The notes under the pieces: generated by a model
Told to the model about the DNA's origin: nothing
Database searches by the model: none
What the model saw: the letters and a program-made list of their open reading frames with translations, nothing else
Part shown: piece after piece, positions 19,849 to 20,307 of the stretch
How the letters are laid out: each line of letters starts with the position of its first letter
How positions within the stretch are numbered: position 1 is the stretch's first letter
Translations under genes and position numbers: made by a program
Origin: a virus
Taxonomy: Duplodnaviria > Heunggongvirae > Uroviricota > Caudoviricetes
DNA length: 34,318 nt
Direction: 5' to 3' (one strand)
IMG/VR virus record: IMGVR_UViG_2534681675_000028

Positions 19849-19924
19849 GTCGACTTAGCTCAGCAGGCAGAGCAACTGACTTGTAATCAGTAGGTCACCA
19901 GTTCGATTCCGGTAGTCGGCACCA
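19849..19924 (+). tRNA. tRNA-Thr (anticodon UGU)
   Basis: 76 nt folded by hand: 7-bp acceptor stem, D-stem GCTC/GAGC, anticodon stem ACTGA/TCAGT with loop CTTGTAA, T-loop TTCGATT, 3' CCA. Confidence 0.7.
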
Positions 19925-19927
19925 TAT

Positions 19928-20002
19928 GCGGGTATCGTATAATGGCTATTACCTCAGCCTTCCAAGCTGATGATGCGGGTTCGATTCCCGCTACCCGCTC
20001 CA
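19928..20002 (+). tRNA. tRNA-Gly (anticodon UCC), close to E. coli glyT with compensatory acceptor-stem changes
   Basis: Anticodon stem-loop TCAGC-CTTCCAA-GCTGA; acceptor GCGGGTA/TACCCGC; T-arm GCGGGTTCGATTCCCGC; ends CTCCA; 3 nt after tRNA-Thr. Confidence 0.8.
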
Positions 20003-20281
20003 ACATTTGATAGAGGCGTATTGCAGCACTGGCGTATTTTTATTACGTGAGGACAGATTGTTTTTTTAGGAACTCTCAGTTTTCGGGCTATGTTTTGAGG
20101 CCAGGTTAGCCTCAGTGCTGATTTTTTACAATACCGGAATGGTGCATTATTGGTTGGGTTACGTAGTGAGCCCTATGGCAGGTACCGGTGATGCACCATT
20201 CCGATGTTGTAAACATCACTTAGAGTAAGTTATAGAACAATTTGCTACTAAGTAAAACCTGAAACCTGGGAATACATCTTT

Positions 20282-20307
20282 ACCGCCACACTTGGCGGTT
20301 TTTTTTT
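20282..20307 (+). terminator. Strong Rho-independent terminator downstream of the tRNA pair
   Basis: ACCGCC-ACACTT-GGCGGT followed by a T9 run. Confidence 0.7.

Follow-up and report, generated by a model that had tools for sequence, protein, structure and literature searches.

A covariation-supported trailer RNA behind a tRNA-Thr/tRNA-Gly cassette upstream of the lysis genes of a lambdoid E. coli prophage

The tRNA cassette and its structured trailer RNA

The stretch of DNA studied here (the window) is the 34,318-nucleotide virus record IMGVR_UViG_2534681675_000028 of IMG/VR, and its locus of interest is near-identical (99.9% identity) to a PGAP-annotated prophage locus of E. coli N96. At 19849-20307 the window carries genes for tRNA-Thr(UGU) and tRNA-Gly(UCC), followed by a structured RNA of ~190 nucleotides (nt), which we call the trailer, a variable spacer and a strong terminator. 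The N96 annotation, mapped onto the window, places the antiterminator gene Q upstream of the tRNAs and the holin and lysozyme genes downstream, and this gene order locates the pair between Q and the lysis cassette, in the cargo slot of a lambdoid E. coli prophage. An earlier reading of the sequence alone (the sequence-only reading) had assigned the pair to a late cargo slot and had described the region behind it as structured and non-coding, and both points hold. It had divided that region into three separate motifs, namely a hairpin with a U-run (20096-20127), a perfect 13-bp inverted repeat around a 43-nt loop (20135-20203) and a terminator (20282-20307). Instead, we found one conserved ~190-nt RNA composed of a four-way junction, a U-run and a long hairpin. 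Comparison among homologs shows the trailer to be a real structured RNA of the plus strand, with a fold held by purifying selection.

Diverged homologs of the 318 nt 3' of tRNA-Gly (~70-78% identity) were found in 387 of 5426 complete E. coli genomes (~7%), with a median of one place per genome. The trailer was present in more than 100 viral contigs in total, and a pattern search for the hairpin core returned 86 IMG/VR contigs. Only two deposited phages carry it, SerU-LTIIb and vB_EcoS-683R6, and E. ruysiae was the sole match of the strict hairpin pattern among GTDB species representatives. A second pattern, consisting of helix P1 and the U-run, recovered more diverged copies, including tandem duplicates. 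Some prophages (loci L002, L182, L186 and L189/L201) contain two tandem trailer copies ~0.8-2 kb apart; the upstream copy of L182 (2518-2685) is the more diverged and has kept the tRNA leader and its own terminator, while both tRNAs are deleted. The hairpin core lay 126-143 nt after tRNA-Gly(UCC) in ~85 of 93 pattern hits, and a comparable terminator hairpin with a U-run was located 68-367 nt past helix P5 in 86 of 91 distinct homologous regions. By these comparisons, a terminator delimits the trailer, which is in genetic linkage with the tRNA cassette. Thr-Gly cassettes without the trailer also exist and have a plain terminator directly 3' of the tRNAs.

A scan of 20003-20307 with the 4227 models of Rfam 15 at an E-value cut-off of 10 returned only sub-threshold miRNA-like hairpins and GadY at E = 1, none of them a match at or near a gathering score. 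Literature searches by exact sequence strings found no paper, and searches on prophage tRNA-Thr/Gly and on tRNA 3' external transcribed spacers (3'ETS) of prophages returned nothing on the trailer. Judged by Rfam 15 and by the literature that could be searched, the trailer is an undescribed RNA structure.

The homologs form two sequence families, the middle parts of which were barely aligned by MAFFT. A covariance model, R1 (67 pairs), was built from family 1. It aligned family 2 full-length at 77-121 bits and was used to make a joint alignment of 47 sequences from both families. In this alignment, 96.0% of cells were paired over the 67 pairs compared to 36-49% in slid controls. Compensatory changes were observed at 24 pairs (144 cells) compared to 14.5 pairs in shuffles, and none of 500 shuffles reached 24. 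Of the pairs in the long hairpin, 3 of 29 in P5 and 2 of 6 in P6 showed such changes. At the sequence level, most of the conservation fell on P1, the U-run, the wobble-rich stretch of P5 and two invariant G's of an internal loop. Sense-strand scores of the model ranged from 77 to 221 bits and antisense scores were at most 43 bits; in the window the model scored 154 bits on the plus strand and 37 bits on the minus strand. We placed the RNA on the plus strand because of these higher sense scores and the abundant G-U pairs.

Two readings without a functional RNA fold bear on these data. In the first, the inverted repeat would function as DNA, whether as a palindrome bound by a protein, as a cruciform or as a small insertion resembling a miniature inverted-repeat transposable element (MITE), and the RNA fold would be incidental. 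The perfect 13-bp core with its 30-nt arms would fit such a repeat, as would the weak hits of the model on the antisense strand (25-43 bits). This reading is nevertheless very improbable. Seven helix positions are mostly G-U on the plus strand and would be A.C mismatches on the other, transitions at these positions keep the pairing, and sense scores are four- to six-fold above antisense scores. The element is also not dispersed, being found at a median of one place per genome and nearly always ~130-140 nt after tRNA-Gly, and nothing in the adjoining four-way junction corresponds to a DNA palindrome. A dispersed palindromic repeat or MITE of the ERIC/IRU kind was rejected because of the strand asymmetry and the lack of dispersal. 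The second is that the region encodes a small protein. In strain S1-NGR-02-A and some other genomes, PGAP places the coding sequence of an 86-aa "hypothetical protein" across it, and the window has open reading frames (ORFs) of 20-37 codons, including a 37-codon GTG ORF at 20115-20228. The chance that the element serves to encode a protein is close to negligible, however. Reading frames are not conserved because the homologs differ by indels of 4 nt and 1 nt, which shift the frame, substitutions track base-pairing rather than codons, and the window and S1-NGR ORFs are alike in their first four residues only.

Unconstrained minimum free energy (MFE) folds of ~40 distinct sequences from both families shared, in nearly all cases, one perfect four-way junction with essentially no unpaired nucleotides at the junction itself. 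RNAalifold recovered P1 and P4 independently from the joint alignment, with 9-14 double changes per P4 pair. The loop sequences of P2-P4 differ completely between the two families. In nearly all homologs, P1 and the arms P2, P3 and P4 give a tRNA-like topology, with a closing stem of 7-8 bp and three arms. No RF00005 (tRNA) hit at E of at most 10 was obtained in 20003-20450, and ARAGORN found only the two real tRNAs. Family 2 contains the sequence TGATAT...GCAGCACCA, but a relic of host thrT or another degenerate tRNA was rejected, as no tRNA covariance-model hit was obtained and the spacing is wrong. A four-way-junction riboswitch aptamer, such as SAM-I, was not indicated either: unpaired nucleotides are essentially lacking at the junction, the loops differ between the families, and no Rfam riboswitch matched. 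An internal promoter within the junction (TTGAAA-N19-TATGAT in family 1, flagged in locus L004) was discarded since its spacing is poor and it is absent from the window and from family 2.

The U-run starts 1-2 nt past P1, and helix P5 begins with the last three U's of the run. P1 followed by the U-run would resemble an intrinsic terminator, with a stem and U6-8 conserved at a 1-2 nt gap, except that the "loop" is ~80 nt of structured RNA. The hairpin with a U-run that the sequence-only reading had seen here stands in part. Its arms (GAGGC/GCCUC) can pair, and a scan flagged 20095-20115 with a U-run 8 nt on, but the fold is not a conserved one: it is pairable in 94% of family-1 cells but without covariation, family 2 lacks it, and the bases of 20096-20127 are used by P4 and P1 in the conserved fold. 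At best, this hairpin would be an alternative conformer. A further reading is a compound terminator or attenuator, in which the G+C-rich P1 and U6-8 would end transcripts from the tRNA promoter, the long hairpin and the final terminator would act as back-ups, and alternative pairings would tune termination or the accessibility of the U-run. The intrinsic-terminator geometry of P1 and the U-run, which are the most invariant parts of the four-way junction, speaks for such a device, as do the competition of GAGGC/GCCUC with P4 and P1, the lethal lysis cassette downstream and the presence of terminators in the same positions in phage 933W. We consider it unlikely, since a hairpin with a ~80-nt loop of three structured arms is atypical, P2-P4 are kept by compensatory changes that a mere terminator would not need, no U-run follows the long hairpin P5, and the competing hairpin is confined to family 1.

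The 13-bp inverted repeat was found as described earlier, and it extends to 30-nt arms (20125-20154 / 20184-20213). The window has only two perfect inverted repeats with arms of 13 bp or more and a loop no longer than 60 nt, compared to 0.035 per composition-preserving shuffle. The other one, at 1922-1949 (13-bp arms, 2-nt gap), may be a terminator or an operator. The fold z-score of the long hairpin was -7.1, and RNAalifold predicted 33 pairs from 56 sequences (52 distinct). Paired cells amounted to 98.8% compared to 35-58% when the partners were slid. Double changes were observed at 5 pairs (33 cells); none of 500 shuffles reached this cell count and 4 of 500 reached the pair count. P5 has 29 pairs with one mismatch, to which the 6-bp P6 is added, and so exceeds the length of at least ~20 bp of double-stranded RNA expected of an RNase III substrate. 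P5 is a likely RNase III substrate because its 29 pairs are contiguous but for the one mismatch and the fold z-score is so low.

The 3' base of the long hairpin can also, as variation among the homologs shows, refold into a small covarying local hairpin made from the 3' lower strand of P5 and the next 6-10 nt. This alternative hairpin can form in 36 of 39 distinct variants, compared to 25% with shuffled tails. Its second nucleotide is the mismatched nucleotide of P5 and covaries with its partner as A:U (12 variants) or G:C (26 variants), with no mispaired exception; it is unpaired in one further variant. The A:U and G:C forms were each found on both backgrounds of the neighbouring P5 pair.

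Table 1. Features of the tRNA cassette, its trailer RNA and the surrounding genes, in window coordinates
Feature	Position	Strand	Basis or remark
tRNA-Thr(UGU), thrU-like	19849-19924	+	ARAGORN; Rfam RF00005, 65.0 bits
tRNA-Gly(UCC), glyT-like	19928-20002	+	ARAGORN; Rfam RF00005, 65.6 bits
Structured trailer RNA, ~190 nt	20024-20213	+	Covariance model; homolog alignments
Four-way junction domain	20024-20120	+	MFE folds; covariance model; RNAalifold
P1, closing helix	20025-31 / 20113-19, plus C20024:G20120	+	7-8 bp, GGCACUG/CAGUGCY
P2	20032-36 / 20044-48	+	Compensatory changes at 3/5 pairs
P3	20049-57 / 20076-84	+	Compensatory changes at 7/9 pairs
P4	20086-91 / 20107-11	+	Compensatory changes at 4/6 pairs
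P4b	20093-97 / 20102-06	+	Compensatory changes at 4/5 pairs
U-run	20122-20127	+	Alignments; U6-8 in all homologs, at least 5 invariant
Long bipartite hairpin, ~36 bp	20125-20213	+	Inverted repeat; fold z-score; RNAalifold; covariance model
P5 lower	20125-33 / 20205-13	+	
P5 conserved mismatch	C20134.A20204	+	
P5 upper	20135-54 / 20184-20203	+	
Perfect 13-bp inverted repeat, CGGAATGGTGCAT / ATGCACCATTCCG	20135-20147, 20191-20203		43 nt between arms
Apical P6	20156-60 / 20169-73	+	
Conserved 3' internal loop, UAUGGCAGGU	20174-83	+	(Y)UGGCAGG, two invariant G's unpaired
Alternative local hairpin, GAUGUU-GUA-AACAUC	20203-20217	+	Reuses P5 3' lower strand
Putative tRNA promoter, -10-like hexamer TATTAT	19776-19781	+	Homolog alignment; promoter scans
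AU-rich linker, tRNA-Gly CCA end to structured RNA	20003-20023	+	Sequence; variable among homologs
Variable spacer (module C)	20214-20281	+	At least two unrelated module types among homologs
Intrinsic terminator	20282-20307	+	Terminator scan; stem 20282-20299, T-run to 20307
DUF968 protein, then RusA	upstream of Q		N96 PGAP, mapped to window
Antiterminator Q	17203-17577		N96 PGAP, mapped to window
CPBP/"lysostaphin resistance A-like" membrane protein	17725-18549	+	N96 PGAP, mapped to window
Truncated DNA methyltransferase	between CPBP-like gene and the two tRNAs		N96 PGAP
Hypothetical protein	20346-20888		3' of tRNA unit; N96 PGAP, mapped to window
TerB-family protein, DUF3927 protein, class II holin, RrrD lysozyme, spanin, terminase	following, in this order		N96 PGAP order

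The tRNA genes and the rest of the locus

ARAGORN identified exactly two tRNA genes in the whole window, with the anticodons given by the sequence-only reading, and Rfam agreed, both genes scoring well above the RF00005 gathering score of 29 bits. The two genes are separated by 3 nt (TAT), as had been noted, and this spacer is invariant in 88 of 88 phage copies. Compared to K-12 glyT, the tRNA-Gly is identical at 73 of 75 positions. Only C6->U and G67->A differ, which by their position is a single compensatory change of an acceptor-stem pair (C6:G67 to U6:A67), in line with the compensatory acceptor-stem changes claimed before. U6:A67 is found in the tRNA-Gly of 80 of the 88 phage Thr-Gly cassettes fetched. 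The tRNA-Thr is identical to K-12 thrU at 73 of 76 positions and differs by U16C and U20C in the D-loop and by C2->U. At position 2 (19850), U2.G71 thereby replaces C2:G71, and U2 was present in only 5 of 88 phage copies. We take C2:G71 to be an identity pair of the E. coli threonyl-tRNA synthetase (set G1:C72, C2:G71, G35, U36), from which the window tRNA-Thr departs at this pair. Because U2.G71 is rare and C2:G71 presumably contributes to identity, the window copy of tRNA-Thr may be charged less well.

Extra tRNAs are located upstream in some cassettes (CAU, Lys(UUU) and Arg(UCU)), all of them readers of A-ending codons; the CAU tRNA is called Met by ARAGORN and Ile by PGAP. In phage SerU-LTIIb (locus L002), one of two tandem cassettes has a thrU-type tRNA body with the anticodon UCU (1122-1194; called tRNA-Arg). 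Relative to the Thr gene it carries G35->C and two more changes, which looks like an anticodon switch inside a duplicated cassette. The sequence-only reading had regarded the Thr-Gly pair as a different complement from the ileZ-argN-argO of Stx-type phages. The 933W annotation does have those three genes in the equivalent place and the complements do differ, but the pair is not unusual, as Thr-Gly cassettes recur in prophages. The pair is ordinary in itself: its genes are near-copies of host thrU and glyT, and many prophages have them annotated by PGAP at this position, 3' of Q and 5' of the lysis genes. The tRNAs therefore add little, since phage copies of rare-codon tRNAs in the Q-lysis slot are well known.

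Codon usage was calculated for ACA and GGA, as the sequence-only reading had suggested for the late genes. When all ORFs of the window are pooled, 24% of the Thr codons are ACA and 17.6% of the Gly codons are GGA. For the late genes (21099-33770) the values were ~14% and ~13%, respectively, so that neither codon is enriched there; in E. coli K-12, ACA makes up ~13-14% of Thr codons and GGA ~11% of Gly codons. The enrichment lies in the AT-rich early and accessory genes. Codon compensation for the late genes was not supported, the values there being close to those of the host, and codon usage as a whole supports the classical codon-compensation idea weakly.

The homologs have TTGCxx, a 16/17-nt spacer and TATTAT or TATAAT ~65 nt upstream of tRNA-Thr, as seen in the alignment and in agreement with promoter scans. 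This suggests a putative tRNA promoter belonging to the cassette. The top sigma-70-like match of the region was a different one, TCGGCA-N16-TATAAT at 19916-19943 on the plus strand (10/12), which runs from the 3' end of tRNA-Thr into the D-arm of tRNA-Gly. This match is present in every homolog because the tRNA sequences there are conserved, and it is therefore probably not a promoter. On the 3' side, the linker between tRNA-Gly and the trailer is a candidate RNase E site for 3' processing, because E. coli tRNA 3' maturation is known to work in this way. The strong terminator noted earlier was also found by the terminator scan; its stem of 7 bp, 5 of them G-C, encloses a 4-nt loop and is followed by T9.

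The spacer between the trailer and the terminator may be the body of a small RNA (sRNA) ending at that terminator. The commoner spacer variant, represented by locus L003, has a weak likeness to STnc100 (RF02076; 22.9 bits, E 0.004), which lies below the gathering score of 47 bits, and shares CGGGAGGCACCCG with it. In this variant the STnc100-like segment runs from the 3' strand of P5 to the terminator, which suggests that a terminator-proximal sRNA would start inside P5 in phages of this type. The spacer type of the window had no Rfam match, STnc100 included, and no BLAST similarity to E2348/69 pasA or pasD2. The STnc100 observations are located at L003 4175-4371 and L180 4487-4662, and a true STnc100 sRNA (93.7 bits) was found between DUF3927 and the holin region in strain OkiPb01701.

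Several other features of the window were recorded. The tRNA unit starts 2.2 kb downstream of Q, compared to 0.2-0.35 kb in 683R6 and S1-NGR-02-A, because a CPBP-like cargo gene intervenes. This homolog of CPBP intramembrane proteases, directly 3' of Q, is an unusual cargo between Q and tRNAs. The methyltransferase gene 5' of the tRNAs is split into overlapping plus-strand frames (19185-19673 and 19579-19734), and PGAP annotates it as an incomplete pseudogene in the near-identical N96 locus. That locus has an IS66-family element (tnpA-tnpB-tnpC; 2466-5054 of the locus), which is absent from the window (~18600-19000) and is inserted between the CPBP-like gene and the methyltransferase remnant. 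In the early region, a full-length match to the sok antitoxin RNA (RF01794) at 15034-15183 on the plus strand (102.9 bits, gathering score 59) implies, on sequence grounds, a type I toxin-antitoxin locus of the hok/sok type; the sok family recurs in the related loci L005, L012, L020 and L189. A full-length match to the DicF sRNA (RF00039) is located at 6593-6644 on the minus strand (77 bits, gathering score 48), as in Qin-type prophages.

Possible functions of the trailer

Our preferred explanation, held with moderate confidence, is that the cassette is a self-contained non-coding "moron" in which the trailer would be a processing and insulation module. The unit would comprise, in order, the putative promoter, tRNA-Thr(UGU), tRNA-Gly(UCC), the ~190-nt structured RNA, the variable spacer and the strong terminator; an intrinsic terminator of its own downstream, one property expected of a moron, is present in the window. 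In this mechanism, the nucleases of normal tRNA maturation, RNase E and RNase P, would cut the primary transcript 3' of tRNA-Gly. P5, as a long near-perfect duplex, would serve as a substrate of RNase III, and cleavage there would part the four-way-junction RNA from a terminator-proximal fragment, which would cap its new 5' end with the alternative hairpin. In lysogens, P1 with the U-run, the RNase III hairpin and the final terminator would together insulate the late and lysis genes from a constitutive tRNA promoter. When Q-modified polymerase reads through in lytic growth, the trailer would provide defined, protected RNA ends. The holin and endolysin genes are located 0.45-1.3 kb downstream of the element in most loci.

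Several points weigh against this explanation. The joint alignment was fitted to the covariance model's own structure. Covariation lies mostly between the two families and independent substitutions are modest; there are few independent covariation events because most changes separate the two clades. In the window the -10 hexamer TATTAT is kept, but the -35 is weak. Every nuclease step is deduced from sequence features. Moreover, the elaborate trailer is dispensable for tRNA expression and basic insulation, because some Thr-Gly cassettes and the 933W tRNA cluster use a simple terminator. Finally, the four-way junction exceeds what a processing site or terminator needs, which points to an additional, possibly trans-acting, role.

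Such a role is the core of a second explanation, in which the trailer would be a stable trans-acting non-coding RNA (ncRNA) gene that uses the tRNA operon for its expression and for the maturation of its ends. It would bind a host or phage protein, the more probable kind of partner, or another RNA via its conserved unpaired motifs, namely the internal loop (U)GGCAGG, the U-run and the P1 sequence, in parallel to T4 rnaC/rnaD and 3'ETS-leuZ. We hold this as a tentative possibility. The structure is far more complex than a terminator or a cleavage site requires, and conservation is focused on P1, the U-run, the wobble-rich P5 and the two invariant unpaired G's. The unit has its own promoter-like element and terminator, and the trailer is separable from tRNA function because cassettes without it exist. 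In addition, T4 annotates two small stable RNAs right after its tRNA cluster, and Hfq-dependent prophage sRNAs are known from the Q-holin slot. Against it, the loops of P2-P4 differ in sequence from one family to the other, an unusual property for a junction that binds a ligand or a protein. ORF clustering of 39 dereplicated loci for a co-occurring partner protein returned lysis genes only, none of them universal, and no homology was found to T4 rnaC/rnaD, to PasA/PasD (by BLAST) or to any Rfam family.

A bolder version, which we regard as doubtful, is that the trailer represents a new family of phage ncRNAs riding on the tRNA operon and acting in trans, maybe by sequestering a protein as a decoy, with the covarying alternative hairpin as a conformational or processing switch that would release a second, terminator-proximal small RNA. 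Such a decoy might be aimed at an RNA-binding protein of the host, at a nuclease or at a defence directed against tRNAs.

The interest of the element lies in its being a large covariation-supported RNA, absent from Rfam, that occurs in the best-studied bacterial species and adjoins a lethal lysis cassette. As a processing and insulation module, the trailer would illustrate how a constitutive promoter can be maintained by prophages immediately in front of their holin and endolysin genes. As a trans-acting RNA, it would add a structured, non-base-pairing member to the prophage RNAs of the Q-holin slot. On either reading, it is a defined ~190-nt element with testable helices and a testable switch.

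Comparison with known tRNA cassettes and structured RNAs

The host thrU-tyrU-glyT-thrT (tufB) operon has tRNA-Thr and tRNA-Gly genes with the same anticodons and in the same order as the phage genes. In contrast to the host operon, the phage pair lacks tyrU, thrT and the 116-nt spacer, its genes are fused by TAT, and position 6:67 of its tRNA-Gly is U:A. The covariance model found nothing in the host thrU operon, and the sequence downstream of the operon is unrelated to the trailer.

In phage T4, the species 1 and species 2 RNAs (rnaC and rnaD) are annotated as small stable RNAs directly 3' of the tRNA cluster and on the same strand. Together they measure ~260 nt, a length comparable to that of the trailer. 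The two systems also differ: T4 is a lytic myovirus rather than a lambdoid prophage, and rnaC has a T-arm-like GGTTCGAATCC motif that the trailer lacks. R1, run with filters off, gave no hit in the tRNA/rnaD/rnaC region of T4, and no homology was found.

A further parallel is the 3'ETS-leuZ of E. coli, which Lalaouna et al. are said to have described in 2015 as a tRNA 3'ETS acting as an sRNA sponge. Both are trailer-derived RNAs located between the last tRNA and the terminator of a tRNA operon. The 3'ETS-leuZ is short and works by single-stranded complementarity to RyhB and RybB, whereas the present trailer is a large RNA with extensive structure.

Phage RNase III processing hairpins include T7 sites of the R1.1 type, lambda sib and the N-leader sites. 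P5 resembles these as a long near-perfect duplex with one mismatch and an asymmetric internal loop, positioned between polycistronic units. It differs from them by its unusually many conserved G-U pairs and its coupling to a four-way junction.

The Q-holin slot hosts the Hfq-dependent sRNAs PasA, PasC, PasD, STnc100, AgvB and AsxR, according to a 2026 preprint (bioRxiv 10.64898/2026.05.13.724894) and a study of enteropathogenic E. coli by RNA interaction by ligation and sequencing (RIL-seq). The 5' end of PasA is the product of cleavage of a longer transcript (bioRxiv 10.64898/2026.05.13.724894), a precedent for the processing proposed for the trailer. The slot is common to these sRNAs and the trailer unit, and the sRNAs end in terminators just upstream of the holin. 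The four-way junction and hairpin set the trailer apart, having no Rfam match, STnc100, AgvB and AsxR included.

Finally, the 933W cassette consists of Q, pR', qut, terminators, an annotated "pT, putative tRNA promoter", ileZ-argN-argO, a terminator and stx2. Its tRNA complement is another one, its terminator follows 13 nt past the last tRNA, and the structured trailer is absent, the covariance model having no hit in 933W. Despite these differences, both cassettes occupy the slot 3' of Q, and both have a putative promoter of their own, tRNAs for A-ending rare codons and a terminator before the cargo or lysis genes.

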